64,000 bases of DNA from positions 5,520,001 through 5,584,000 of the forward strand of contig CM119371.1 of NCBI GenBank assembly GCA_051294905.1, in the 5' to 3' direction. Shown here in pieces: positions 3,496-60,222 of the stretch (position 1 is its first letter; every line of letters begins with the position of its first letter). Source of the DNA: Botryllus schlosseri (taxonomy: Eukaryota). The position numbers and the translations under genes were made by a program. The notes below the pieces were generated by a model. The model was not told the DNA's origin and did no database searches. It was given only the letters and a program-made list of their open reading frames with translations.

Positions 3496-4440
3496 TCTTT
3501 ATTTTTTCATCGAACCAAAATACATAACAAACGGCAGTGATGGTGGTACAGAAAATATGCGTGCACAGTATTCGGTATTAGATAGGAATGATCGATAAGA
3601 CCATGGAGGTCATCTAGTCTGATCACACCAGCATCAAACAGGTATACTTGACTCAGAACAATGAAAATCAGTGCAAGGTTGAAATGGGAGGGGTTTCGAC
3701 CCTCGAAAACCACCCCTTAGCTGCTCAACCGTTACTAGTGATGATTCTGAGCTTGCAATTGTTATTAGTTGCAAGAACATCACCCAATAAAACACTGGCA
3801 TCACAATTTACGTTAGATGACAATACGTTTTCTAATTCTACTTCTGATTCAAGTTCCAGTTTATCGGCAGCTAATTTACTCTAACTATGACTATAACCTA
3901 TTCAAAATCACGAACTAGAATTAGAACTACTTGAAAATTCGACCTACAACTTAACAACTAAACTAAACTGAGCACTGAGCAGCGAATATGAAAACTGAAA
4001 AGCAGAACACCTGAGGACCACTGTGATTCTATTAGAATTTTTAGCGAAAATCGGTGATTGGGTGAATCATGAATATATACTCGGGTGTCATTACATTTTG
4101 TGCTTTGGAAATTACATCGGCATATTCAGGAACCTCTTGCCATACTGTTTCTTGATGATGTATTCAATGACAAATGCACGTAAACGACCGTTTTCGGGTG
4201 TATTTCCAGGTATTATCACGAAAAAACAATTTTAAGAAGACGAAGAGATACCTACTACACAGCCGTTTGACTGAATATTTTGCAGTTGAATCGTAAGAAA
4301 TGTGTCGGTGATAACGCTCAACAGACCATGTCTATCGACTATCCTTGGGTATAAATATATTTCGAAGAGTGCGGGAATGATTTGACACCGGCGGCTGCTA
4401 CGAAGAATCATCATTTTCTCGAATATATGATCACGACGAA

Positions 4441-7357
4441 TAGTAGAACACTTTTTTAAAAGATTTAGGCTCCGGACTCTACATACAACTCATTAGAATC
4501 GAATTGAAATCGGACATTTTCGAAATTTCGGTAATCCGGACACACTTATGGCCCCAGTTCGACCCTTGGGACGTCGACTTGAATAATAATTTTAGTCTCG
4601 ATAGAAGCGGCCAGATTAGTAGAACCCATTTCAAAACGAATTAGGCTTCGGACTCTACATATATCTCATTAGAATCGAATTGAAATCGGACATTTTCGAA
4701 ATTTCGATAATCCGGACACACTTATGGCCCCAGTTCGACCCATGGGACGTCGACTTGAATAATAATTTTAGTCTCGATAGAAGCGGCCAGATTAGTAGAA
4801 CCCATTTCAAAACGAATTAGGCTTCGGACTCTACATATATCTCATTAGAATCGAATTGAAATCGGACATTTCCGAAATTTCGATAATCCGGACACACTTA
4901 TGGCCCCAGTTCGACCCATGGGACGTCGACTTGAATAATAATTTTAGTCTCGATAGAAGCGGCCAGATTAGTAGAACCCATTTCAAAACGAATTAGGCTT
5001 CGGACTCTACATATATCTCATTAGAATCGAATTGAAATCGGACATTTTGGAAATTTCGATAATCCGGACACACTTATGGCCCCAGTTCGACCCTTGGGAC
5101 GTCGACTTGAATAATAATTTTGGTATTGATGGAATCGGCTAGACTAGTAGAATCCATTTCAAAACGAATTAGGCTTCGGACTCTACATATATCTCATTAG
5201 AATCGAATTGAAATCGGACATTTTCGAAATTTCGATAATCCGGACACACTTATGGCCCCAGTTCGACCCTTGGGACGTCGACTTGAATAATAATTTTAGT
5301 CTCGATAGAAGCGGCCAGATTAGTAGAACCCATTTCAAAACGAATTAGGCTTCGGACTCTACATATATCTCATTAGAATCGAATTGAAATCGGACATTTT
5401 CGAAATTTCGATAATCCGGACACACTTATGGCCCCAGTTCGACCCATGGGACGTCGACTTGAATAATAATTTTGGTATTGATGGAATCGGCTACACTAGT
5501 AGAATCCATTTCAAAACGAATTAGGCTTCGGACTCTACATATATCTCATTAGAATCGAATTGAAATCGGACATTTACGAAATTTCGATAATCCGGACACA
5601 CTTATGGCCCCAGTTCGACCCTTGGGACGTCGACTTGAATAATAATTTTGGTATTGATGGAATCGGCTAGACTAGTAGAATCCATTTCAAAACGAATTAG
5701 GCTTCGGACTCTACATATATCTCATTAGAATCGAATTGAAATCGGACATTTACGAAATTTCGATAATCCGGACACACTTATGGCCCCAGTTCGACCCTTG
5801 GGACGTCGACTTGAATAATAATTTTAGTCTCGATAGAAGCGGCCAGATTAGTAGAACCCATTTCAAAACGAATTAGGCTTCGGACTCTACATATATCTCA
5901 TTAGAATCGAATTGAAATCGGACATTTTCGAAATTTCGATAATCCGGACACACTTATGGCCCCAGTTCGACCCATGGGACGTCGACTTGAATAATAATTT
6001 TGGTATTGATGGAATCGGCTACACTAGTAGAATCCATTTCAAAACGAATTAGGCTTCGGACTCTACATATATCTCATTAGAATCGAATTGAAATCGGACA
6101 TTTACGAAATTTCGATAATCCGGACACACTTATGGCCCCAGTTCGACCCTTGGGACGTCGACTTGAATAATAATTTTGGTATTGATGGAATCGGCTAGAC
6201 TAGTAGAATCCATTTCAAAACGAATTAGGCTTCGGACTCTACATATATCTCATTAGAATCGAATTGAAATCGGACATTTACGAAATTTCGATAATCCGGA
6301 CACACTTATGGCCCCAGTTCGACCCTTGGGACGTCGACTTGAATAATAATTTTGGTATTGATGGAATCGGCTACACTAGTAGAATCCATTTCAAAACGAA
6401 TTAGGCTTCGGACTCTACATATATCTCATTAGAATCGAATTGAAATCGGACATTTACAAAATTTCGATAATCCGGACACACTTATGGCCCCAGTTCGACC
6501 CTTGGGACGTCGACTTGAATAATAATTTTGGTATTGATGGAATCGGCTACACTAGTAGAATCCATTTCAAAACGAATTAGGCTTCGGACTCTACATATAT
6601 CTCATTAGAATCGAATTGTAATCGGACATTTACGAAATTTCGATAATCCGGACACACTTATGGCCCCAGTTCGACCCTTGGGACGTCGACTTCAATAATA
6701 ATTTTGGTATTGATGGAATCGGCTAGACTAGTAGAATCCATTTCAAAACGAATTAGGCTTCGGACTCTACATATATCTCATTAGAATCGAATTGAAATCG
6801 GACATTTTCGAAATTTCGATAATCCGGACACACTTATGGCCCCAGTTCGACCCTTGGGACGTCGACTTGAATAATAATTTTAGTCTCGATAGAAGCGGCC
6901 AGATTAGTAGAACCCATTTCAAAACGAATTAGGCTTCGGACTCTACATATATCTCATTAGAATCGAATTGAAATCGGACATTTTCGAAATTTCGATAATC
7001 CGGACACACTTATGGCCCCAGTTCGACCCTTGGGACGTCGACTTGAATAATAATTTTAGTCTCGATAGAAGCGGCCAGATTAGTAGAACCCATTTCAAAA
7101 CGAATTAGGCTTCGGACTCTACATATATCTCATTAGAATCGAATTGAAATCGGACATTTTCGAAATTTCGATAATCCGGACACACTTATGGCCCCAGTTC
7201 GACCCATGGGACGTCGACTTGAATAATAATTTTAGTCTCGATAGAAGCGGCCAGATTAGTAGAACCCATTTCAAAACGAATTAGGCTTCGGACTCTACAT
7301 ATATCTCATTAGAATCGAATTGAAATCGGACATTTTCGAAATTTCGATAATCCGGAC
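4441..7357 (+). repeat. 176-bp tandem array in left TIR (~16.5 units)
   Basis: Motif CACACTTATGGCCCCAG recurs at 4541, 4717, 4893 ... 7181 (16 copies, period exactly 176). The array breaks off mid-unit at 7357. Confidence 0.97.
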
Positions 7358-8835
7358 TTACTTTGATTCAACTTCAGGTATCATAAAATCCTATCCTGGT
7401 TTGAAACCCTACCAAATCTATTCGCTGTTGGTGCGTAATCCATTTAAAGGGCATCTTGGGCTACCAGTTGCCAGCTACGTAACAACGAGGCACACGACCA
7501 ACAGCATACAAACCTTCCTCGGCTTCTTCCAGGAGAAATTACGATCAACAATCAAACCAAGGTTGATCATTATTGATGGGGCTATGGCAATTTGGAATGC
7601 AGTACTGCAAACGTTTTGTCACGAAACACGATTGCAGTACTATCACCGAATCTACCGGATAGTCAATGGCCACGCACAAAGAAATGACCTGGAGTTGCCA
7701 TTTGTGATAAATTGCTTGAGTCATTGCATGCATGCAGCCTCAATCTTAACCAGGAAATATTACAAAAGAAAAACACATAAAACTGCAATGCACTGGATGG
7801 GACTTTTATTCATGTTGTCTGACATCAGTGAAATATATTCGGCATTTTACCACATATTGGTGCTTCTTCTGTTTGAAAGGAACTCGCCACAAGTTTCGAA
7901 CAGTTACGGGATTCTAAAAAACGCTTCTACATCTTCGGGGCTTGAACGTTTCGATTGTTCGGTTGTTGATGAAAATGACGTAATCATAAACGACGCGGAT
8001 TTCTTTTCGAACATTGCGAAGAAAGATAAAAATCAGGAGGCACAATCACCTTTTTTTGTTCAAAGCAAAACCATAATGGACAATTTGAAAAATTCTGAAA
8101 TTTTTGAGGAAGGATCAAATCCTGTTTACACAAAAAATGAATATTATTCTCCGGATTTCGCCGACAAAATGTTGCATGTTATCATGCCCCGGATTGGTGC
8201 CACATCAGGCCTTTTGCTCGGAGATTTTATTAGGCATGCTGAAGCGAAAGATATTCCAAACTACGCGCTGTACGAAAAATACAGCGCTAGTTACAAAAGT
8301 ATCGAGAAGTATGCTGCCAAGAATAACACACGATCAATTTGCGAATACAACCGAACCCAAGGCGTGATTGAGGAGCATTTTCACCAACTGAAGCACGTTT
8401 ACTTGGGTGGCAGTCGTGTAAGTGATCTCGATCGATTTGTGTACAGATACAAGAAAGAAATCGCAAAATCGTGCAAGATTTTTTCTGATGTGTTACTGCA
8501 CTCGGGATACAGGAGTGGAAAAACAGCATTATCAGCTGTCTCGGAATTCGATGACTCGGACCTTTTACATTCCGAGTTCAAAGGGTGCAATAAAGCCAAA
8601 TCGGGGACGAAAAACGTGGAACATCAACCGAAGTTGTCAGGCAACTCGAGAAACAAAACGTCTCATCGAGACATCAATACAGGAATTTACACGTCGGGAA
8701 AATTTGGGGATAATATAATTTTTCTGAATAAGCCTAACTCCCTTGCTGCCACAACGCCTAGCGTCAACGATGTCGAAACTACTCTGTGTGCAGAGACAGC
8801 AGGAGATCACACGAAAAAACCAGTAAAATTCTCAG
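7358..8835 (+). CDS. MULE-family DDE transposase catalytic domain exon, N-terminally truncated
   Basis: Within ORF 7320-8858: YFDSTSG (D1), PVASYVT..H...I..FL, IIIDGAMAIWNAV (D2), CLSH (CxxH) and TQGVIEEHFHQLK (E). The ORF start (TTG) lies inside the tandem repeat. Probable donor CTCAG|GTATT at 8835. Confidence 0.85.
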
Positions 8836-9084
8836 GTATTAACCTATCATGCTTCTAAATATAAAATAATCGAGATTCATAGGACACGTACGGGAAGAGG
8901 TTGCCAAAGTAGAAGCAGAATTTGCTCTCCGTAAAAACAGGAACGATTACGAACGACAGGATAACGATTCGACCGCATTATCTGGACGCATTATCGGAAC
9001 CACGCAAGCGGTGTATAGATTAACAAGCCGAGACTTTCGTAGATGTATTCTATAGTGATCTCTCCATATAGATTTCGCGCGAAG

Positions 9085-9533
9085 CAGTGATTGCCCTACG
9101 AACGGGGGGCCCTGGGCGAGACTTATCGGGGGGCTATAAGTATCTAATAGTAACTTCTGGGGGTCTCCGCCCCCCAGACCCCCTTTTGCATCTGTTATTA
9201 TTATCCATCTTTCACCACGTCAGGTTGGGCCAGGTGATGGATTCGGCTATATCTATTATTGCATGTGTGCAAGAGGTAGACGACATCAGAACTAAGTAAT
9301 TCTACCGCATGCATAGACGTGATGATGATCGGGATACGGGACTTTTCTAACAAATGCAGGGATTTGATGATGATTGACACATCTGTACGGAATCATATTC
9401 TTGCTTGGTACACCGATTTCCATGTTTATTCGCTATTAGCCTTTAAAAAAGCGCATAAACCAAAGAGGGGGCCTTCGACCAGGGGGGGGGGGCGGGGGAC
9501 CACCCACCTCGCCCACCCCAAAAGCCACCACTG
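9085..9533. mobile_element. hAT-type MITE inserted inside the MULE
   Basis: CAGTG...CACTG termini; exact 8-bp TSD GCGCGAAG (9077-9084, 9534-9541). Confidence 0.85.
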
Positions 9534-9670
9534 GCGCGAAGCATGATCAACATTTTTGTCTCTCCGCAAAAACTGGTACTCAATTGGTCTCTCTCTTCCT
9601 CTTATTAGAAGTACATATTACTTCTACTTGATACAGTGTAAGTAGCGTTTGATTACACTTCTTTATACAG

Positions 9671-11318
9671 ACATTAACACGCTGTGGTTGTCAGAGGCTT
9701 GCGACAGGGTGGAAGCGGTTGTCAGGAGGAATACACTAACATCAAGGGATCTGCATTTGTTGTCAGGGAATGAATGGCTAAATGATAAGGTATGTGCTGC
9801 ACCAGTATAACTAGTTTTCTGATTCATGGAATCTTTTCTGTCCAGATTATGGATGCGGCAATGCAGACGCTGTGTATAAAGGTAACATTCATTTTGTTTG
9901 CCAATTGTGTTAGATTATTATGCAATAATAATGCCGCTCAATTCCTATTAGAGCGGGAAACCCTATAACTGCATTTCCTGTCAACTTTCGACACCATGTT
10001 GGTACCAGGGTCTTTACCACGGGAAGGAACTCACCAAAGCGGTACGGCATCATCACATTCCTCGTAGCATTATTTGGAATAAGTCGTAATGCATGGTGTG
10101 TTTAGATGCAGAATAAGCCGCTCGAAAAATCCATCGTGACATCTATCCACCTTGGGAATCATTGGATTTTTCTGGTAATCCATTTTCTTGATAAAATTTC
10201 TGTTGTATGCTGGACCAGTCATACCTCGCTTTGCGTTTTTGTTAAGGCCAGCGACATAGAAGCAAAGCTTCTTTATGTTTACGATTCCCTTGGCAATGAA
10301 GAAGATTACACAGAAACTTTGTTGCAACACTGGAAGTGAGATTATCGAAAAGGTAGAATTAAAAAAATAATTTCATTGCTCGGTTTATCGAAAATTAGAG
10401 GGTACTGGACTCATCACAAGCCCGAGCCCGAGAGTTCCGTGGATTGGACCGTAATATGCTTTCCACACGATGCCCAAACAGACACTTTTAACTGTGGAGT
10501 CCTGGTGCTGAAGGTATGAATTTCATTCATATATATATATGAAAATATGATTTTTTTCGTGCCAAACGTGAATAGTAATAGTATATTACATTTTCACGAT
10601 GTTTTTTGGAATACCTATCTGCAAGGTCCCGCCAAAAAGGCCTACTTGGAAATTATACATTGAATACCCCTAATAATGATGCTGCGGCGGCCCGCGGCGT
10701 CATTAAAAACTAGGAAATTGACCCGCAAGCACGTTTGAGCTGGAGACCTCGGGCTTAAAACATGTTTCAATCAAAGTGTTTTGAAGCACCGTTTGTTGTA
10801 AATGCAAGCCTAGTTACATCAATTCTATTCAAACTCCCAGCGACTGATTTATCATTTTGCATTGTCTGCGATGAGGCTTCTTTCAGTTTAGAGAACAGTC
10901 ACCTCTGATCGAATACCAAGAGCATATGACGCCTCGACCAAATCTACTTTTCTAAATTACTTGAGTTCTTTTGAGACCTATCACGTTCTTGGAAATCGAT
11001 ACCTATACCTGTAATTGATTAGAAATTTAAGATATTACTGGCACTGCTACTGCAGTAGCAACGATAACTATACGTCAGCCACCTCTGATTACTCGTATGA
11101 AAACATTTGGTTGGTGTTCTAAGTTTGCGGAAAAGTTCTTGTTGGGTGAGGCCACCGATTTTCCGGCAAGCACTGAAGATTGCAAACGCTATCGCGAGAC
11201 CATTGGAAACATGTTGCTCGAACGAACAGGTATAAATGTTAGCTGTTATTTAGTGGTAAAATATAATATTGCTTCTTTTACATATAGATGAGAAAGTTCT
11301 ACTCGAAAGTCGAAATGG
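9671..11318 (+). CDS. Spliced Ulp1/SENP-like (peptidase C48) cysteine protease domain
   Basis: Phase-consistent GT-AG exons 9671-9789 (..LLSGNEWLNDK), 9846-9881 (IMDAAM..), 9952-10041, 10106-10174 (..LGNHWIFL), 10247-10335 (..YVYDSLG..), 10399-10513 (..AQTDTFNCGVLVLK), 11124-11229 (FAEKFL..YRETIGNML), 11288-11318. WLND, HW, DSL and QxDxxxCG motifs are all present. Confidence 0.88.
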
Positions 11319-11734
11319 GTAAGTAGAATGCTTGCTGACTCTCGAATCTGAAATTAACTTATTGTTCCAAGCGAGATAGCGTAATGTTGATCGAGTTCGA
11401 CATTATGACGCAACAATTCTGTCTGGAGTGAAGCTCAGTAAAAAGAGCCAGACAGCATAGTTGCGTCACAAGGTCAAGCTCGATCACCATGCAAAATTCG
11501 AGGCTGATTTTGGGGTGTTCAATGAACATGATCAGAATGAAATATATATTTTCGTAATCAGCACAGCAGCAGCTTTCAATTGATGCCCATTTTATCAAAT
11601 TTAGCGATCGGTAAGCCGGTCAAAATTGGTCGTAAAATTGCCCTTGGACAAATGGAAAGTGTGTCGTCAGCCAAATGCAGTGGGCCGTTCAATCTCGCTG
11701 TGACAACACCACGCTATGTTGGCTTTTATCAAAA

Positions 11735-12220
11735 TACGAAAATGACTCGAGCCTGACTCGACTTGGACTCGAATCATTGCGCATGACTCGCACCAAGTCA
11801 TATGACTCGAATCTCAACGGCATTGACCGACAATTCATTGTAATTCAAATGAATAGTAAAGCAACCAGCCAGCACACTGCTGGTATTTCGCCTTGGTACT
11901 GGCACTTGAAAATGCGAGCAGAAACTGTTGAAAGTGAGGAAAATTAGTATATTTTAAGTGCGCACCATTCGATATCACCAAACAACGTTTTAAAAAGTGG
12001 TTCCAACAAGACTTCAAGTAGAAACTGAGCAGTGAGCAGTCAACTCAATTACTTCGACTCGGACTTGAGTCAGAATACCACGACTCGGACTGGGCCCATT
12101 GCTCGCTGACTTTGACTTGGACTTCGGGGTGAATTGAAAATGACTCGACTTGACTCAAGTCAAAACTATAGAAGTGAAATTGACTCGTGACCCACAGCCT
12201 TGTGACTTGGTTACTAGCCT
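11735..12220. mobile_element. Degenerate GACTCG-rich hAT MITE copy in last intron of the MULE gene
   Basis: Similar to the copies at 28727-29259 and 30732-31316; termini eroded, boundaries approximate. Confidence 0.7.
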
Positions 12221-12432
12221 GCTATGTTCACATCATCCCTATTGGTGTAGCCTATTTTAATCGAAATCGCGAAGTTCATGTTCAAGTTCAAATAAATTAA
12301 TTCCGGAACTGTAGGTCTTCACAATATTTTCCCTTTTCACTGTGTTATAGGTTACGTTATAATTAGACGACAGAGACAGAAAGTTATACATTTTTTTAAA
12401 TATCACATCAATAAACGTTTTAATTGTTTCAG

Positions 12433-13099
12433 AAACGATGCTAAAAGACCGCATCTGCTAATCCAATCGAGCTCTGAGGATGACGATATAGCCACGGAAA
12501 AAGGCAAAAAATGTATGGGAAAGCGCCGCAAAATGCCGGAAATTTCTTCAACAGTTACCTATCAGAGAGTTCCGATTTTCACTACATTTAAAGCACCGAT
12601 CCCGGAAATGTTATCGGAAGAACAAAGCGAAGATATTTTTGAACACATTAGGAACATTTGCGTAAGCTCGCTAACCAAATCAAATGAGGAGCAGCAACAC
12701 CTTCGTCGTCACGGGCTTTTTATGCTATCAAAGAATCATGACAGGTTGAGAAAGCATGGCTATACAAATGATCTTTGGGAATACAATGACGTAGATTCGG
12801 TGTGTAAGTACGTCAAGTCGAAACTTTGTTTGCTGAGGACGTTTGCGAATAAATCAAACGCATCCGGCCGAATACTTCCGAGACCAGGGGAATTAACAAT
12901 CGAGGTAATCAACCCTGGCGTCATTGGAGAAAACTGTGATGTAATGAAATTTTTGAAACCAGATTTCAAAGTCCATTCATATTTTAGACTTGTAATTTTG
13001 ATTGAAATTATAATTAAACTAACCATGGTAAAAAAAAATCTCAACTACAAAGACGCTGAAGATCTTCTAGGATGTTATTCAACGATGGTAATAAGTTGA
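12433..13099 (+). CDS. Terminal exon of the element-encoded protein, unrecognised domain
   Basis: Acceptor TTTCAG|A at 12432. The frame is open into ORF 12515-13099 and phase-compatible with the exon ending at 11318. Contains a basic NLS-like stretch (KKCMGKRRK). Confidence 0.7.
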
Positions 13100-13307
13100 A
13101 TAATAGAAGCGCTACAATTTTGAATAAGCTTTCCCGTATTCGTTATGTTGTTGTTGTTGTTATCTTGTACATTCTTACAGTTCGAAAAATATGATAAAAT
13201 CGGAATTGCTAGAATGTTGTTTTATTGTTCCGGCTGTATCATTAGTGGAGGCTATGTACACTGGATAAGAGGACAGAGCAGAGCCATAAATCACGCGCTC
13301 TAAACCG

Positions 13308-16300
13308 AAGGGTCGAACTGGGGCCCTAATTGTGTCCGGATTACGGAAATTTCGAAAATGTCAAATTTCAATTCGATTCTAATGAGATATATGTAGAGTC
13401 CGAAGCCTAATTCGTTTTGAAATGGATTCTACTAGTCTAGCCAATTCCATCAATACCAAAATTATTATTCAAGTCGACGTCCCAAGGGTTGAACTGGGGC
13501 CATAAGTGTGTCCGGATTATCGAAATTTCGAAAATGTCCGATTTCAATTCGATTCTAATGAGATATATGTAGAGTCCGAAGCCTAATTCGTTTTGAAATG
13601 GGTTCTACTAATCTGGCCGCTTCTATCGAGACTAAAATTATTATTCAAGCCGACGTCCCAAGGGTCGAACTGGGGCCGTAAGTGTGTCCGGATTATCGAA
13701 ATTTCGAAAATGTCCGATTTCAATTCGATTCTAATGAGATATATGTAGAGTCCGAAGCCTAATTCGTTTTGAAATGGATTCTACTAGTCTAGCCGATTCC
13801 ATCAATACCAAAATTATTATTCAAGTCGACGTCCCAAGGGTCGAACTGGGGCCATAAGTGTGTCCGGATTATCGAAATTTCGAAAATGTCCGATTTCAAT
13901 TCGATTCTAATGAGATATATGTAGAGTCCGAAGCCTAATTCGTTTTGAAATGGATTCTACTAGTGTAGCCGATTCCATCAATACCAAAATTATTATTCAA
14001 GTCGACGTCCCAAGGGCCGAACTGGGGCCATAAGTGTGTCCGGATTATCGAAATTTCGTAAATGTCCGATTTCAATTCGATTCTAATGAGATATATGTAG
14101 AGTCCGAAGCCTAATTCGTTTTGAAATGGATTCTACTAGTCTAGCCGATTCCATCAATACCAAAATTATTATTCAAGTCGACGTCCCAAGGGTCGAACTG
14201 GGGCCATAAGTGTGTCCGGATTATCGAAATTTCGAAAATGTCCGATTTCAATTCGATTCTAATGAGATATATGTAGAGTCCGAAGCCTAATTCGTTTTGA
14301 AATGGGTTCTACTAATCTGGCCGCTTCTATCGAGACTAAAATTATTATTCAAGTCGACGTCCCAAGGGTCGAACTGGGGCCATAAGTGTGTCCGGATTAT
14401 CGAAATTTCGAAAATGTCCGATTTCAATTCGATTCTAATGAGATATATGTAGAGTCCGAAGCCTAATTCGTTTTGAAATGGATTCTACTAGTGTAGCCGA
14501 TTCCATCAATACCAAAATTATTATTGAAGTCGACGTCCCATGGGTCGAACTGGGGCCATAAGTGTGTCCGGATTATCGAAATTTCGAAAATGTCCGATTT
14601 CAATTCGATTCTAATGAGATATATGTAGAGTCCGAAGCCTAATTCGTTTTGAAATGGGTTCTACTAATCTGGCCGCTTCTATCGAGACTAAAATTATTAT
14701 TCAAGTCGACGTCCCATGGGTCGAACTGGGGCCATAAGTGTGTCCGGATTATCGAAATTTCGAAAATGTCCGATTTCAATTCGATTCTAATGAGATATAT
14801 GTAGAGTCCGAAGCCTAATTCGTTTTGAAATGGGTTCTACTAATCTGGCCGCTTCTATCGAGACTAAAATTATTATTCAAGTCGACGTCCCATGGGTCGA
14901 ACTGGGGCCATAAGTGTGTCCGGATTATCGAAATTTCGAAAATGTCCGATTTCAATTCGATTCTAATGAGATATATGTAGAGTCCGAAGCCTAATTCGTT
15001 TTGAAATGGGTTCTACTAATCTGGCCGCTTCTATCGAGACTAAAATTATTATTCAAGTCGACGTCCCATGGGTCGAACTGGGGCCATAAGTGTGTCCGGA
15101 TTATCGAAATTTCGAAAATGTCCGATTTCAATTCGATTCTAATGAGATATATGTAGAGTCCGAAGCCTAATTCGTTTTGAAATGGGTTCTACTAATCTGG
15201 CCGCTTCTATCGAGACTAAAATTATTATTCAAGTCGACGTCCCAAGGGTCGAACTGGGGCCATAAGTGTGTCCGGATTATCGAAATTTCGAAAATGTCCG
15301 ATTTCAATTCGATTGTAATGAGATATATGTAGAGTCCGAAGCCTAATTCGTTTTAAAATGGGTTCTACTAATCTGGCCGCTTCTATCGAGACTAAAATTA
15401 TTATTCAAGTCGACGTCCCAAGGGTCGAACTGGGGCCATAAGTGTGTCCGGATTATCGAAATTTCCAAAATGTCCGATTTCAATTCGATTCTAATGAGAT
15501 ATATGTAGAGTCCGAAGCCTAATTCGTTTTGAAATGGATTCTACTAGTGTAGCCGATTCCATCAATACCAAAATTATTATTGAAGTCGACGTCCCAAGGG
15601 TCGAACTGGGGCCATAAGTGTGTCCGGATTATCGAAATTTCGTAAATGTCCGATTTCAATTCGATTCTAATGAGATATATGTAGTGTCCGAAGCCTAATT
15701 CGTTTTGAAATGGATTCTACTAGTCTAGCCGATTCCATCAATACCAAAATTATTATACAAGTCGACGTCCCAAGGGTCGAACTGGGGCCATAAGTGTGTC
15801 CGGATTATCGAAATTTCCAAAATGTCCGATTTCAATTCGATTCTAATGAGATATATGTAGAGTCCGAAGCCTAATTCGTTTTGAAATGGGTTCTACTAAT
15901 CTGGCCGCTTCTATCGAGACTAAAATTATTATTCAAGTCGACGTCCCATGGGTCGAACTGGGGCCATAAGTGTGTCCGGATTATCGAAATTTCGAAAATG
16001 TCCGATTTCAATTCGATTCTAATGAGATATATGTAGAGTCCGAAGCCTAATTCGTTTTGAAATGGGTTCTACTAATCTGGCCGCTTCTATCGAGACTAAA
16101 ATTATTATTCAAGTCGACGTCCCATGGGTCGAACTGGGGCCATAAGTGTGTCCGGATTATCGAAATTTCGAAAATGTCCGATTTCAATTCGATTCTAATG
16201 AGATATATGTAGAGTCCGAAGCCTAATTCGTTTTGAAATGGGTTCTACTAATCTGGCCGCTTCTATCGAGACTAAAATTATTATTCAAGTCGACGTCCCA

Positions 16301-16426
16301 AGGGTCGAACTGGGGCCATAAGTGTGTCCGGATTACCGAAATTTCGAAAATGTCCGATTTCAATTCGATTCTAATGAGTTGTATGTAGAGTCCGGAACCT
16401 AAATCTTTTAAAAAAGTGTTCTACTA
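13308..16426 (-). repeat. 176-bp tandem array in right TIR (~17.5 units, inverted relative to left array)
   Basis: Reverse-complement motif CATAAGTGTG at 13501 ... 16317 (17 copies, one a variant, period 176), plus a degenerate innermost unit at ~13308-13340. Confidence 0.97.
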
Positions 16427-19400
16427 TTCGTCGTGATCATATATTCGAGAAAATGATGATTCTTCGTAGCAGCCGCCGGTGTCAAATCATTCCCGCACTC
16501 TTCGAAATATATTTATACCCAAGGATAGTCGATAGACATGGTCTGTTGAGCGTTATCACCGACACATTTCTTACGATTCAACTGCAAAATATTCAGTCAA
16601 ACGGCTGTGTAGTAGGTATCTCTTCGTCTTCTTAAAATTGTTTTTTCGTGATAATACCTGGAAATACACCCGAAAACGGTCGTTTACGTGCATTTGTCAT
16701 TGAATACATCACCAAGAAACAGTATGGCAAGAGGTTCCTGAATATGCCGATGTAATTTCCAAAGCACAAAATGTAATGACACCCGAGTATATTTTCATGA
16801 TTCACACAATCACCGATTTTCGCCAAAAATTCTAATAGAATCACAGTGGTACCTGAGGTCTCGCATACCCAGTCATAAGGCAGACCTTATGCAGTCATAG
16901 CGACACCGTAGGGTTGTACGGCGGCAAAAAAGTAAAAAGCAGAACTGCTAGCCAGGAAATATTCTTTCTAATATTTTTTTTCGTGAGACAATCTTAGGGT
17001 GTCGTTCTTTTGATGCACTGTTGACTATAGGTACCAATATTTTGTAGTGATGTGCCAGGCGTATATTGACGTGGATTTTCGTATTCTATGTTACTCTTAC
17101 TGGGCAATAATTTTAGGCCATAGAAGGCTTGTTGATTAGCGCAAGACTTCGTCATGTTAGTAAAGATTGAAAACCACTGATCTAATATCAGTTTCGCAGA
17201 TTAATAAATCTTTCATTCCACATCTTGCATAGTTATTAACATTAGCTTTTTTATGATCGACGAAATAAAAAAAAAACTGTCGTCTGTTTTGTTGTCTTTG
17301 CGTCTTTTGTTTACGGCTCATTGACCTCGGCCGCAATATAGATGGGTGATTCCCGTCTGTCTGAGTAGATATTTGATTGCTCACTGCTCACGCTCAGTGA
17401 AAGTATAGATTACTAACCTCAGAAAGTTAGTAATCTATTGCAAAAGTATGATTCAGATTACTGATATTATAAAGAAGAAGCTATATAATTTATGACATAA
17501 CCTTTTACCAGTGTCAAAGACTAATACCAATTATCCCACGCGACTTGTTTTTCTCAGTTTGCGAATTATCATCAAATTATCTCTCTGGACTAGACATCGA
17601 GAAATTAGGATGTTACCGTCACCGCTTATGATCAGTGCCGCTATTATAATTCCATTCTGCCTGAGGACCTCAAGTTGAGGTTCTGTGCAGACTTCTACAA
17701 ATTATTGAACTGGTTGGTTGACGGTCAATTAATCATCGCTCTGAACCCTGATTGGAATCGCTGGTTTTTTTGCCTGATATATCAGGTGAGCAGCGATGAT
17801 TTTCCAAGTTGAAGTAATTTAATGAAAAATAATTAAAAAATGAAATGAGCACAGGACACCGATTCCAAACAGGCTCTGAATTAGTAACCGAGATGGCACG
17901 ATGATACCATCACCGCAAATCATCATCCATTTCTCTACTATATTTTTATCTGTTTTACTTGAGGTTCTGTGCAGACCTCTACAAACTACCTAACGGTATC
18001 CAGTTAGTTAGCTAATTGCTGGTATTTTGAGTAGATCAAGTTTCATATCAATCAGTAGCGTACTTTGAAAATTCCCAGTTGTATAGTTCTATAGTTGTGC
18101 ATTAAAAAAAAAAAAATTGCCAAACCATGATAGAAAACACGTGTCATAATTTAGTATGAATCGTGATACCCGTGTTCTGTTGTTGTGCCATTAGCAATGG
18201 TCCATTGCAGGCTCACAATCATCGCTACTAACAGGGATGTAGCCTGAGGTTATAGTTCCAGTTCTGGCTGTCTAGTCTTCTATAAGCCTAGTCTTTGAAC
18301 TACAAGTATAAAGTATGAATCAAGTTTGTTAAACAACAACATATTTTTTGGACAACCTAACTATTACGGTATATCAACTAACCAGTAAAATTTTTCAAAA
18401 AATGGTATTTTTAAACAACATAATAAACCTTGTTTTGGTATCAGTTTGTCTGTCTGTTAATACACGATATTTCATTTTCCAGACTGATTTGTATTTGATT
18501 TCACTATAATGTAAGATAAAGTTGAGATCGCTACTAAAGAGATCCCGTAGTTGTGTGTGATGACTCTACTGGGAAACGATACATTTCTTGGCAAACGGGG
18601 ATTTGCGAAATGCTTCAAAAATCACGCAAGTCGGAACAAAATGAGTTTTTGCTAGTAAAATTGTGCTGAAGGTGAGTGAAGTTTGTTAACGCGAGGAATC
18701 TATATGTGACTGGTAGGCCTATATGTTGTATGCACCAATGACTTCTGGTGAAAACAAGGATTTGGTCTGAAACTTGCAAGTTGTTATTCAACTTTGAACT
18801 GAGAGGGGTTTCGGCCCCACACCCACACCTTGCTAAGCCCTGTTAGTAATAACGTCTCTGAGCTAGCAATGAATGCGACAATATCACACAACAAAACACC
18901 GGCAGCAAGATTTGTGTCAACTAATTGTAGGGTAAGTAATTTTGTTTCAATGCGCATCTAGAACTAGAGCTATCAAAAAGCCATTAGCTAATTATACTTG
19001 ACCATCAACAAACTAGATGGGTAGTTCATGCAAGACTATATAGTTATGTAACTGGATTTGCATTGACAGCTGAATAACCTCTTCGTGAACAACAACATGG
19101 AGGTGAAGATTGGAAATTTTGGACAAGCTACCAAAGTCAACTTTGACAACCAAACAAAGAACACTTTTTGGGCCACACCAAACTATATTGCCCCGGAAGT
19201 TCTCGTCAAGAATGGACACAGTTTCAAAATGGACACCTTTTGGCTGGGATGTGTTTTGTGAGTATGGTGCATCACTCATCTAGGACTTACTAAAATGGGC
19301 TGCAACGGTCTTAGGTGTAGAAATGGGTAAAATCGAGCACATGAGAAATTTAATTCTGAATCACTTATTAGTCTTCGACTCGAGTATCACTCGTTATGAC

Positions 19401-27664: not shown

Positions 27665-30137
27665 CAGACATGGGGTGATTACTTCACGAATGTAATCGAT
27701 TGCGATTACGATTACTTGTGAATCCCGCGATTACGATTACGATTACGATTACAGCGAAATCAGGAATTAGTCGATTACGATTACGATTACATTTCAAAAG
27801 TAATCACGATTACTCACGATTACATTTGTTTGGCTTCTAATATATTGGAGATATTGGAAGACAATATAAGGCTTGCGATGAAGATAAGGTCTAATGAGAT
27901 ATCAACTTTCTTTATAAATGATACGTCATTTGCTTGTTACGTCATAATGCACCCATTGCCCAACTATATGCAGGACTATTCGTCGCAGCCAACGATTTGC
28001 ATTCTTGTCAGGTCCGTAACTGCCACACCCCGAACTCCCCAATACGACCGGGAGCGAGTTCTAAGGGGACTCAAAAGTATTTCGTAAATCAACATAAATT
28101 ATAATAGAGTATTTGCAAGAGAGTTAATTAACTTGAAAATTTTCTTCGAGATAATGTCTCTAAATAGCTCGATTTTGAAATGCATACCTCTCCCCCTCAA
28201 GAAAAAAAGCATGCATAATTCATAAGAATATGCATTTCGGTGGCCGTCATTACCCCGGTACGACACACCAAAAGACGCATGCAATTTCGGCCAACATGCA
28301 ACTCCACAACGTGTGCTACAAAAGAATGACCTTGGCCAAAACTTTGGGTATGTGTCCATTGTCAGTAGCCGCGCTCTGTGGGCGTGACGAATAATCCAGT
28401 CTCTCCAATCTGAGCCCCAACAATGCAAATGCTAGCAGGGGTACTCACAGAAGAATGATGACATGACAATTTGTGTGTGCGTCTCACGAAAATTTTCTTA
28501 CGTTTGGGCGAGTGCAGTATCTTTTGATTACATAAAAGGTGGGAGGTCACGAATTAACAACATACAATAAAGTAATTATAACAACATACCAGATGCTATA
28601 ATTATGAATTACGTGCCCCCAGCTCTACCGGTAAATCTGAATGTATAGCAATATAATGCAATTACCCACATTAAGACGAAATTCAGTGATCAACTTGAAA
28701 ACTGACCACCATGGGGCCCCAATACCCAGGGTTGTAATGACTCGAGTCGCGATTTTTTGGTGACCAGACTTGACTCGAGTCAATTTTTGTATTGACTCGA
28801 CTTGTACTCGAGTCATTTTGCATGACTCAAACCAAGTCATAGGACTCGAGACTAGAACGGCCAAGACGGACATTCCATGTAACTTCGAAGAATAGTAAAG
28901 TTACCACATTATTTGTATTTCGTCTATCATCATGCAGTCCTGGTACATGGAGATAGGGCCGCATACTGATAAAACTGATAAAAATTACTATATTATGAAT
29001 ACGATCCATTCGATATCACTCGAGCAGAGTTGAAAAAAGTGGCTAAAGCCGGATTGATCTGAAAACTGATCAGTGAACATAACGACTTGTACTCGTAGTC
29101 GAGTCAAACACTATGACTCGGACTCGACCCTATACTAGCTGACTTGGACTCGGACTTGACTCGGGGGTGAATTGAAAATGACTCGACCTGACTCGTGTCA
29201 AAACTATAAAAGTGAGATCGACTTGTGACTCGTAACATTGTGACTTGGTTACAACCCTGCCAATACCAACGATTGGAGTGGGGGACGAATTGCTCTTTTG
29301 ATCCTGATTGTACCTAGAACCCACGCTAACATGGTGTATAAGCGGATGGCTATGGCGACAGGTGTAAATGTCGAGTGAAGAATTGTGAAATAACGATTGG
29401 CGCCCGTTTTAAGTAGAGTCATATGAGAATAAGATAAAGTGAACTTAAAATTCTACCTTCCACTTAATACAGATACTGCAAGGTGCCGTTACGAGAAACG
29501 GCAAAGAACGGCACGGTTATGATATATATCAGCAGCTGTTGCTTTTAACCATCGTAATGTTTTATTTGACGTACGTATATTACATAGATAGGCCTACTGC
29601 TCGCCAAGCAGCAACGGTCAAACTGTGCATATCTAAGCATACCCAAACATCAATACATAAGTTACTATTTGAAACTAGGCAGAGTGGTGATTATTATCTT
29701 GCTGCGAGGTAGTGCCGTCTGAAACGTATTGATAACCTGATATACAGCGTGGCTTACACTGTTCTAACAATAACACAACAATGTACATCGAATATATATT
29801 TACTACGTGTGGATACTTCTTACGCAAGGACGAGCAAAGCTAATGCTTCTGACGTAATAATGAGAAGTGGCGTTTGAAAATCAACCGTTTGCGCTATCAA
29901 TAACCTGGTAGAATATCTCTTCCTTGTTCACGAATGGTCGGTTATGTCATATTCATTATACAAATAAAAAGTAATCGTCCTTTCACAAAAAAATCGATTA
30001 GATATGTGAAGTAGTCGATTACGATTACGATTACTTTGGATTTTTTTCGAATGTAATCGATTGCGATTACGATTACTTGAAAATGCTGTAATCGTCGTAA
30101 TCGATTACGATTACTAATCGCGATTACCCCATGTCTG
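27665..30137 (+). mobile_element. Non-autonomous hAT element with (CGATTA)n subterminal repeats, copy 1
   Basis: CAGACATGGGGT...ACCCCATGTCTG TIRs; exact TSD GTTTCGAT; paralogous to 58817-62245. Confidence 0.92.
28727..29259. mobile_element. GACTCG-rich hAT MITE nested in the CGATTA element
   Basis: CAGGGTTGTAA...TTACAACCCTG TIRs; exact TSD CCAATACC. Confidence 0.92.
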
Positions 30138-30731: not shown

Positions 30732-31316
30732 GAGGGTTGTAATGACTCGAGTCATGACTCGACTCGAGTCACGTTTCTCAGATGACTCGACTTGACTCGA
30801 GTCATTTTCTAAAAATACGGAAATGACTCGACTCGACTCTAGTCAGTTGGTGTATTGAGTCGACTTCGACTCGATTCATTGCGCATGACTCGAACCAAGT
30901 CATATGACTCGAGACTCAGAAGGCCAAGGGCGACGTTTCATTGTAATTTCGAGGAATAGTTAAGTAATCACACTATAGGGATTTCGTCTATTGGTACTGG
31001 TACTTAAAAATGCGCCCAGAAACTGCTAAAAATGACGAAAATTAGAATATTATAAATGCGAACCATTCGATATCACCAAACAGAGTTATATAAAGTGGTT
31101 TTAACAAGCCTTTAACTGGAAACTGGGCAGTCAACACAATGACTTGGACTCGACTCGAGTCATAATACCATGACTCGGAGTCGACCTTCTGCTCGGTGAC
31201 TTGGACTCGGACTTGACTCGCTGGTGAATTGAAAATGACTCGACTTGACTCGAGTCAAAACTATAAAACTGAGATTGACTTGTGACTCGGAGACTTGTTA
31301 CTTGGTTACAACCTTG
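30732..31316. mobile_element. GACTCG-rich hAT MITE inserted in a PLK exon
   Basis: GAGGGTTGTAA...TTACAACCTTG; exact TSD GCGTCATC. Confidence 0.9.
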
Positions 31317-37506: not shown

Positions 37507-38910
37507 TTACGGTACATCACAATAATGAATTTTGGTGCCAGCATGCACCGCCATATGATGATTGAGGTTGCCCTTAAGAGTAAATGCCTTCCCAAATATA
37601 TCACAACCATGATTTTTGATGCAAACATGCATATCCATATGTTGCTTGAGGTGCCTCTTTCTAGTAAATGCTTTCCCACATATATCACAAACATGATTTC
37701 TGATACCAGCATGCATATCCATATGAAGCTTGAGGGTACCCTTCTCAGTGAATGCTTTCCCACATATATCACAAATATGATTTTTTATTCCAGTATGTAT
37801 ATTCATATGACGATTGAGGCAACTCTTACGAGTGAATGCCTTCCCACATATATCGCAAACATGATTTTTGATGCCAGCATGCTTATCCATATGAAGTTTC
37901 AAGAAACCTTTCTCAGTGAATGCTTTACCACATATAGCGCATTTATGATTTTTAATTCCAGCATGCTTATCCATATGCAAATTGAGGGTACCTCTCCGAG
38001 TGAATGCTTTACCACATATATCACAAACATGATTTCTGATGCCGGCATGCATTTCCATATGAAGCTTGAGGTGACTCTTACGAGTGAATGCTTTACCACA
38101 TACCTCACATTCACTGTTGTGTATACCAGCATGCACATCCATATGAAGCTTGAGGGTACCCTTCTGAGTGAATGCTTTACCACATACATCACATTCATGA
38201 TTTTTTGTTCCAGTATGCATATGTATATGACGCTTGAGGGTACCCTTCTCAGTGAATGCTTTACCACATATAGCACATTTATGATTTTTGATGCCAGCAT
38301 GCATATCCATATGAAGCTTGAGGTGATTCTTACGTATGAATGCTTTACCACATATAGCACATGTATGATTTTTGATGCCAGCATGCATATCCATATGACT
38401 CTTGAGGTGATTCTTACGTATGAATGCTTTACCACATATAGCACATGTATGATTTTTGATGCCAGCATGCATATCCATATGACTCTTGAGGTAAGGCTTT
38501 TTAGTGAATGATTTCCCACATACATCACATTCATGATTATTGATGCCAGTATCCGTATCCATATGACGCTTGAGGTGACCCTTCCTAGTGAATGCTTCTC
38601 CATGTAAATCACATTCACGATTGTTTATTCCAGCATGCACATCCATATGACGCTCGAGGGTACCCTTCTGAGTGAATGATTTACCACATATATCAGATTC
38701 AACATTTTTGATGCCAGCATTCATATTTATATGTTGCTTGAGGTTACTATTCCCAGTAAATGCTTTCCAATATATATCCAATTGGCGTTCTTTCAAGTCG
38801 TGATCAATAGTTGATACTGGATCCAAATCATGCTTTTCTTTATGACACTAGGGAAAAGACTCACCGAGTTTCAGCATTTCAGCATATAAAATTGGTTCGC
38901 TTATCAACAT
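37507..38910 (-). CDS. Tandem C2H2 zinc-finger exon (11 intact, 4 degenerate, 1 truncated finger)
   Basis: 28-aa periodic CxxCGKAFTxKxxLKxHMDxH repeats with AGIKNH linkers. Candidate acceptors at 38911 (TGCAG) or 38848 (TTTTCCCTAG). Upstream exons not identified. Confidence 0.9.
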
Positions 38911-59100: not shown

Positions 59101-59796
59101 AACAATGTAGGATTTATCGCACCCAACGATTTGCATTCTTGCCAGCTAAGTCCGTAACTGCCGCACCCAAAAATCACCAATAGGGTGGGGAGCGAGCTCT
59201 AAGTGGAATCAAAAATACTTCGTAAACCAACATAAATTATAGAATATTTTCGAGAGATTTAATTAACTTGAAGTTTTTTTCGAGCTTCGCGATTTAAATG
59301 TTTCTAGACTTTTGTGATTCATACCTGTCCCCCTCAAGAAAAAAACATGCATAATTTATGGTAATAGGCATTTGAGAGCCGGTCATTACCGCGTCACGAC
59401 ACACCAAAAGACATATGCAGTTTGGGCCAATATGCGACTCCACGGAGTGTGTTACTAAAGAAAGACTTTTCCGAAACTTAGGGTATTTGTCCATTGTCAA
59501 TATCCGCGCTGGGTGGGCGTGACTAATAGTGCTGTCCTTCCAATCTGAGCCCACAATGCAAATGCCAACCGAGGGCACCCACAGACGAATATAAACATGA
59601 CAATTTGTGTGAAAGTCTCACGAAAGTTTTTTTTTGGTCTGCTATACGTTTGGGCGACTGCAACATCTTTTTATTACTTAAAGGATCGGAGGTCACGATT
59701 TAACAACATACCAGATGGTAATGATTATGAATTACGTCCCCCGGATTTACAAGTAAATCTGACCATCGGGGACTGGAGAGGATCAAAAATGATGAT

Positions 59797-60222
59797 TAGG
59801 GTTGCATTTAAAACAAACGGTGTTCCAAAACACTTTCTTTAAAACATGTTTTAAGCAGTGTTATAAACCAAGGCCTTTAAAAAACAATATTGTGTTTTTT
59901 TAGCTATGAAATTATGCCATAATTGTGTGAATACTTTCCAAAAAAACATGTTGTATGGGCCTACGGACAATCACCATCCGTATATCGATATGGGATGGTT
60001 GAAACCACCAAAATAGTCGGTTCAACAGCAATAGTACATATATTTCGTCACATGAGCTAAAGTTATTCTATATTTTCAATTGTCAATGTCAATCCACCAA
60101 GACATCAAAATAGAATATTCGTGACGTCATGGCTTAAGGGAAAACAATTAAACATGTTTTAAACAAGGCATTTGTTTTAAACATGTTTTTTTTAATTGAT
60201 TTTCGTTTTAACTGCAACCCTA
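59797..60222. mobile_element. MITE (TAGGGTTGCA termini, AAAACATGTTTT-rich) nested in CGATTA copy 2
   Basis: TAGGGTTGCA...TGCAACCCTA; absent from copy 1; no clean TSD. Confidence 0.75.

Follow-up and report, generated by a model that had tools for sequence, protein, structure and literature searches.

The locus described here lies in a 64,000-nucleotide stretch of the genome of Botryllus schlosseri (GenBank assembly GCA_051294905.1, contig CM119371.1, positions 5,520,001 to 5,584,000 of the forward strand), which we call the window and number from its first letter. Eight predicted exons on the plus strand between positions 9671 and 11318 are found there, downstream of a transposase open reading frame (ORF) and inside a transposon with long terminal inverted repeats (TIRs). 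An earlier sequence-only reading of the same DNA had proposed that these exons encode a transposon-borne protease of the SUMO/ubiquitin-like protein type. The exons are listed here together with the score lost on omission of an exon, measured against the hidden Markov model (HMM) of Peptidase_C48 (C48) domains described below.

9671-9789, plus strand: protease exon 1, ending in NEWLNDK and without an ATG; omission costs 20.2 bits
9846-9881, plus strand: protease exon 2; omission costs 16.3 bits
9952-10041, plus strand: protease exon 3, a variable and weakly supported region; omission costs 3.5 bits
10106-10174, plus strand: protease exon 4, with the predicted catalytic His codon at 10160-10162 (NHWIFL); partial match to Pfam PF02902
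10247-10335, plus strand: protease exon 5, with the predicted catalytic Asp codon at 10283-10285 (YDSLG)
10399-10513, plus strand: protease exon 6, with the predicted oxyanion Gln at 10475-10477 and catalytic Cys at 10493-10495 (QTDTFNCGV)
11124-11229, plus strand: protease exon 7, C-terminal helices, following a 610-nt intron; omission costs 12.5 bits
11288-11318, plus strand: protease exon 8 with its spliced end (11288-11322 if the GT at 11319 is unused); omission costs 1.9 bits

When the eight exons were spliced by a script, the joined frame of 217 residues contained no stop codon, reproducing the in-phase splicing claimed by the sequence-only reading, whose start and end match the outermost splice sites of the set, the acceptor of exon 1 and the donor of exon 8. 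AG precedes and GT follows each exon, so that all 16 border dinucleotides are canonical, and a pyrimidine-rich stretch is found before the AG of each. Six of the introns measure 56-72 nt and one measures 610 nt. The spliced product carries the predicted catalytic residues His100, Asp117, Gln160 and Cys166, in that order, and holds all four of the peptides quoted earlier, including WLNDKIMD, which straddles the junction of exons 1 and 2 (WLNDK from exon 1, IMD from exon 2). At the 3' end, exon 8 may be the last coding exon, because a TAA at 11320-11322 would terminate the frame at once if the donor at 11319 were unused. Within the 610-nt intron 6, a 72-bp stretch (10753-10824) matches 59787-59856 on the minus strand at 85%; the presence of a nested repeat fragment may account for the ten-fold greater length of this intron compared with the others.

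For the identification of the domain, we built an HMM from seven C48 domains of relatives of the adjoining transposase, each of which scores above the gathering score of Pfam PF02902. The match of the spliced product to this profile covered model positions 21-224 of 255 and reached 61.8 bits (single-target E 3.5e-21). In the controls, the score did not exceed 0.5 bits for twenty residue shuffles or 29.0 bits for ten shuffles of exon order. Omission of exon 1, 2, 4, 5, 6 or 7 lowered the score by 12-23 bits each, while the borders of exons 3 and 8 are the least supported, since these two exons add just 3.5 and 1.9 bits. In an alignment of the product with eight relatives, the His, Gln and Cys columns are conserved in nine of nine sequences and the Asp column in eight of nine. 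The His/Asp/Cys triad and oxyanion Gln claimed by the sequence-only reading therefore occupy conserved columns, and the assignment to a SUMO/ubiquitin-like-protein-protease type of domain held up against the C48-type profile, with 61.8 bits for the product and no more than 0.5 for its shuffled residues.

The matches of single ORFs fit the claim that the domain is largely invisible among the ORFs. When the C48 HMM was compared with the 3,839 six-frame ORFs of the window, its top three matches were the ORFs containing exons 4-5, exon 1 and exon 6; they follow the collinear order of the model, and each is weak by itself (E 0.083-0.42). No single exon exceeds 10 bits alone. The unspliced ORF 10106-10336, which comprises exon 4, an in-frame intron and exon 5, matches Pfam PF02902 with E 0.0034 and 17.7 bits. 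The same unspliced ORF gave no match in a sequence search of the PDB, and none in a word-index protein search; likewise, an exact 27-base pattern from exon 6 had no match in metagenome contigs. Taken as a spliced whole, the eight exons encode a predicted cysteine-protease domain of the clan-CE/C48 type and represent more than a chance pattern.

The protease exons are placed in the 5.9-kb centre of an element of 12,834 bp (4017-16850), whose remaining features are as follows.

4009-4016, no strand: left copy of the probable target-site duplication (TSD), 8 bp, ACCTGAGG; the identical 8-mer stands outside both ends
4017-7363, plus strand: left TIR, consisting of an outer unique part (4017-4440) and a 176-bp tandem array (4441-7357, 16.6 copies)
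7365-8858, plus strand: ORF of a Mutator/IS256-like DDE transposase, 5'-truncated, recognized from 359 relatives and the family core HMM
8836-9670, plus strand: putative intron of 835 nt from the transposase ORF to protease exon 1, with G- and C-runs, proposed from the match of phases alone
13305-16850, minus strand: right TIR, consisting of a 176-bp tandem array (13308-16426, 17.7 copies) and an outer unique part (16427-16850)
16851-16858, no strand: right copy of the probable TSD, 8 bp, ACCTGAGG

The inverted arms (4017-7363 and 13504-16850) extend over 3347 nt with 97% complementarity. Outside the arrays, their non-tandem parts (4017-4440 and 16427-16850) agree at 420 of 424 positions, and both ends of the element terminate in ACCACTGTGATTC... 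The tandem arrays, about 3 kb each with 96% matches, stand in inverted orientation to each other. The inverted alignment continues into the flanking 8-mer ACCTGAGG with one mismatch and one indel, because the 8-mer is nearly palindromic. Its reading as a direct repeat is exact and better than the inverted one, and the 8-bp direct repeat is a probable target-site duplication, judged from one insertion only. Thus, the protease domain is transposon-borne, as the sequence-only reading had claimed: the element that encloses it has long inverted ends and is flanked by a probable target duplication. The 176-bp arrays form most of the inverted ends, and it is possible, by analogy with Rehavkus elements in Tribolium, that they could act as a seed for satellite DNA.

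The sole long frame near the protease, 7263-8858, contains the transposase ORF. A library of 1.84 billion proteins yielded 359 relatives of this ORF at E<=0.001 and 104 at E<=1e-10, the closest having 47% identity (E 1.2e-90). Against the core HMM of the family, the ORF scored 287.2 bits over model positions 7-385 of 509. The relatives share the consensus D-A-T-G-S ... D-x-S-x-A ... H-x-C-x-S-H ... E-x-x-F-x-x-L-K, and in the window the first Asp is found at 7365-7367 (YFDSTSG), the second at 7575-7577, a candidate Glu at 8373-8375 and the stop codon at 8856-8858. Pfam searches gave weak matches: PF21056 (ZSWIM1-3 RNaseH-like) for the window ORF with E 0.0017, below the cut-off, and PF10551 (MULE) for two of 46 relatives, with a best E of 0.0014. 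The structure model of one relative, P0014, has a transposase core with a predicted local distance difference test score (pLDDT) above 90. Its best structural match by Foldseek was the ISCth4 transposase of the IS256 family (E 2.8e-4, probability 0.99), followed by the P element, Hermes and RAG1. IS256 elements are the bacterial kin of Mutator. In a search with a protein language model (Atlas), 18 of 30 matches fell into MULE-annotated clusters. Word-index searches with the transposase found only one protein, P0001, among those of similar length, and no match among longer proteins. On this evidence, the adjoining transposase belongs to the Mutator superfamily. An 8-bp TSD by itself is compatible with Zisupton (PMC12730594), and Zisupton/KDZ was the first guess from the length of the duplication. 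This assignment was rejected on the lack of a KDZ domain and the presence of the MULE/IS256 evidence: PF18758 (KDZ) was not reported for the window ORF at E<=1, for 25 long relatives at E<=0.001, or for a set of 46 at E<=0.01 among 11 listed families.

The transposase of this copy is incomplete. Homology to the family sets in precisely with the first catalytic Asp, where the left tandem array ends on its inner side, and the first in-frame ATG (7584) follows both Asp residues. An HMM of 299 positions, built from the N-terminal region of the relatives, matched nothing in any frame of the 64-kb window. Of 16 related metagenome loci, 15 have a match to this HMM immediately before the core, and the sixteenth locus is a fragment; in four of the 15, the match was limited to the last 28 positions of the HMM (E 0.0013). 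By this comparison, the predicted N-terminal, DNA-binding front of the transposase, about 300 residues, is lost, and the copy is defective. This copy would not produce a working transposase, since its N-terminal part is missing and no start codon precedes the first catalytic Asp; it could at best be mobilized in trans. Because its ends are nearly identical and the TSD is intact, the copy looks like a young non-autonomous derivative. The intactness of the protease domain in this copy is explained as well by youth as by use.

Whether the protease belongs to the transposase depends on the exon junctions and on the architecture of the family. Neither protease exon 1 nor the frame before it contains an ATG. 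The acceptor before 9671 is of phase 1, and a phase 1 donor (CAG/GTATTA) follows position 8835, seven codons before the transposase stop. In the simplest gene model, the protease exons are probably spliced to the transposase ORF (8835 to 9671), which would create a transposase-protease fusion. For the family, long transposase relatives were scanned against Pfam in two sets of 25 and 46 proteins, which have six proteins in common and comprise 65 distinct proteins. These relatives come from metagenome assemblies and many are fragments, so the fractions of domains are lower bounds. In the set of 25, Peptidase_C48 was found in seven, a USP-type UCH domain in ten and both in six; C48 and UCH were always C-terminal to the transposase match, and PHD fingers N-terminal to it. 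C48 was found in three and UCH in six of the set of 46. PHD matches were detected in five of the 25 long relatives, one of them above the gathering score, and in two of the second set. The longest relatives, with up to 2113 residues, have the order PHD, transposase, UCH and C48, and P0014 shares the arrangement of the window, with C48 directly after the transposase. A weak C48-like piece of about 18 bits (model positions 170-221) was observed in two related metagenome loci, L003 (2841-3626) and L004 (5426-6466), where it is found just before UCH in the same ORF. The long relatives show the opposite order, with UCH first and C48 second. Terminal inverted repeats were not seen in six related metagenome loci, which are probably partial, making their ends uninformative.

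We assign the protease to the transposase family because its distant relatives often carry C48 downstream in the same protein. Most likely, the predicted protease is the C-terminal domain of the transposase gene. No remnant of a USP/UCH domain was detectable in this copy: an HMM of UCH from nine relatives had no match in the window at E<=1, and a phmmer comparison of all frames of 7300-13400 with 150 family proteins returned the transposase ORF and weak scattered matches alone. Long runs of G and of C are found in the region 8860-9670, which separates the transposase stop from exon 1, together with a GCGCGAAGCA-type sequence repeated directly near 9078 and 9535. This region may represent a small insertion, or else a scar left by the deletion of, for example, a USP domain such as that of the relatives.

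We consider it rather likely that the eight exons represent an Ulp1/SENP-type protease domain, a C-terminal accessory of the transposase gene in a 12.8-kb Rehavkus-like transposon of the Mutator superfamily. Several observations weigh against this interpretation. C48 was detected in just 10 of the 65 distinct long relatives, many of them fragments, and is not universal in the family. On contiguous window sequence, the match to Pfam PF02902 stays below the gathering score (17.7 versus 20.7 bits). The best single relative of the spliced product, P0129, reaches just 24.4 bits; therefore, the HMM evidence is indirect and the window domain is distant from those of the relatives. The C48 part of the structure model of P0014 is of low confidence, with pLDDT mostly below 50. 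Bacterial CE deubiquitinases are matched as well by the C48 domain of one relative, namely the RickCE_cat model and OtDUB (E 0.055), the latter being the only match in a sequence search of the PDB with P0014. SUMO, NEDD8 and ubiquitin as candidate substrates cannot be told apart from the sequence.

Some of these observations would be expected if the exons were instead a piece of a host SENP/Ulp gene captured by this element. Such transduplication, as in Pack-MULEs and plant KI-MULEs, would leave the domain without inherited ties to the transposase family, and the element might derive no function from it. The protease coding sequence of 655 nt is interrupted by seven introns, in contrast to the intron-free transposase exon of 1.5 kb, which fits separate capture and likewise counts against the interpretation as a transposase accessory. 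The best match to a single family protein, with its 24.4 bits, and the varying domain order among the relatives, with the weak C48 piece before UCH in L003 and L004, point in the same direction, and the capture of Ulp1 by plant MULEs and CACTAs is documented (PMC2528002, PMC13317346). Against capture by this element alone, distant members of the same transposase family, recovered from unrelated assemblies, also have C48 downstream of the transposase, and the spliced product fits, over its whole length, a profile built purely from transposon-borne domains (61.8 bits). The exons also lack a start codon of their own and are in phase with the transposase ORF. On balance, we regard host capture as unlikely, while conceding it some weight.

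The sequence-only reading had offered a self-processing protease as an alternative. The domain would then cut a transposase polyprotein, in the manner of adenain and other viral clan-CE proteases that cleave after Gly-Gly. Viral clan-CE proteases process polyproteins, and the relatives of the transposase combine several domains in very long proteins (up to 2113 residues), one of which has a weak Peptidase_C5 match (E 0.0088). Nevertheless, the 12 linkers of six transposase-UCH-C48 relatives hold two Gly-Gly, where shuffles predict about 3.5, and no conserved LxGG is found at the domain borders of these six proteins. The linker in the window, the tail of the transposase ORF, contains no Gly-Gly. 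This alternative found no support in the lack of Gly-Gly enrichment, a weak test given that cleavage sites need not be Gly-Gly, and we judge it very improbable. Lastly, a chance or decayed look-alike exon pattern devoid of coding meaning, for which one might cite the low scores of single exons (at most 10 bits), the small contributions of exons 3 and 8 and the defective copy with its nested repeat fragments, is hardly credible against eight open exons in collinear order whose 16 border dinucleotides are all canonical, a score of 61.8 bits compared with at most 0.5 for residue shuffles and 29.0 for exon-order shuffles, and all four catalytic residues in place.

The interpretation as an Ulp1/SENP-type accessory of a transposase gene can be compared with published systems. 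Ulp1 domains are known from plant MULE and CACTA elements, namely KI-MULE/Kaonashi of Arabidopsis, MULEs of melon, rice and grapevine, and CACTA-ULP (PMC2528002, PMC13317346, PMC8978399). These elements and that of the window have in common a DNA transposon with a C48/Ulp1 protease domain of about 200 residues, and in some plant ULP1 families the domain has the same orientation or frame as the transposase. Whereas KI-MULEs are described as having no TIRs and as carrying the domain in a separate gene opposite to mudrA, the element of the window has 3.35-kb TIRs of tandem repeats and a domain that is probably spliced to the transposase. Its transposase also differs from those of the plant ULP1 elements in representing a Rehavkus-like lineage, whose members often carry USP/UCH as well. 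Rehavkus is a group of the Mutator superfamily reported from Tribolium and Helobdella (PMC6446971, bioRxiv 10.1101/2024.12.02.626372). The window shares with this group long TIRs with subterminal tandem (minisatellite) repeats, here arms of 3347 nt with a 176-bp unit in 16.6 and 17.7 copies. The published TSD of Rehavkus is 9 bp, as opposed to 8 bp from one insertion in the window, and the protein region in which the PHD finger of Rehavkus would be expected is missing from this copy. We use the label Rehavkus-like instead of assigning membership, as the 9-bp TSD was not found.

Helitron-like elements offer another parallel. According to the HELIANO survey, captured OTU, UCH and Peptidase_C48 domains are stably carried there at conserved positions beside the transposition protein (PMC11417382). 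These are rolling-circle elements with Rep/helicase, unlike the cut-and-paste DDE transposon of the window. The motif order of cellular Ulp1/SENP proteases (PF02902, MEROPS C48), with a WLND-type helix, HW, D-S and Q...C-G, is shared by the window domain, which differs from them in being very divergent, in having no targeting N-terminal region of its own and in being embedded in a transposon gene. Transposon-borne Ulp1 domains are thus a published, recurrent theme, and the element of the window is a further example and not a new type. In the literature searched, which excluded most subscription papers and supplements, no publication was found that describes a protease in Rehavkus-like elements, nor any that deals with USP and Ulp1 as a pair behind a Mutator-type transposase.

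As to function, SUMO is reported to be required for transposon silencing guided by Piwi-interacting RNA and for that of the SetDB1 type (bioRxiv 10.1101/533091, PMC10363806, bioRxiv 10.1101/2021.07.27.453956). An association with escape from silencing has been described for plant VANDAL/KI-MULE elements bearing ULP1, although no role is established for their Ulp1 part itself (PMC13317346). From this link between SUMO and silencing and from the plant precedent, we infer that an anti-silencing, deSUMOylase role, which the sequence-only reading had also put forward, may apply to the present domain. In intact members of the family, the domain would act as a ubiquitin-like-protein isopeptidase tethered to the transposase. 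It might strip SUMO or a related modifier at the element from chromatin and silencing proteins or from the transposase itself, and such removal of the modifier could favour expression or transposition. The frequent company of a USP deubiquitinase in the relatives points in the same anti-silencing direction.

A bolder version would hold that the family carries an old, selected 'double deconjugase' module fused to the transposase, in which a USP/UCH deubiquitinase and an Ulp1-type protease together erase SUMO and ubiquitin marks set by the silencing or repair machinery of the host at the element's own DNA. We consider this version improbable; if it held, young truncated copies like the present one could still supply the protease in trans.

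Ulp1-type proteases recur in unrelated transposon superfamilies, where their role has never been demonstrated. The present example provides clear element borders, a defined exon set and a transposase family with a USP deubiquitinase in distant members. It thereby gives a concrete construct with which deconjugation of ubiquitin-like proteins by transposons can be tested against SUMO-dependent silencing. It also illustrates that an accessory domain of a transposon can hide in exons of 12-39 codons and be missed by ORF-based masking. We regard the finding as useful rather than surprising, since it concerns a defective copy and an idea already in the literature.

The element contains one more open frame, downstream of the protease:

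12296-13099, plus strand: open frame of 267 codons, with no family match

This frame had no Pfam family at E<=1 and no relative among the 150 proteins of the transposase family; its best Atlas score of 0.86 is a weak lead only. It could be a second gene of the element, a further exon or noise. Nested between it and the protease is a dispersed repeat of about 460 bp (11754-12214), of which the window holds two more copies, at 30856-31309 and 28793-29260, with 79% and 72% identity, respectively. Outside the element, the minus strand at 37510-38847 bears a frame of 446 residues with about 12 C2H2 zinc fingers (PF00096, E 1.8e-78), which is overlapped by a repetitive frame on the opposite strand.

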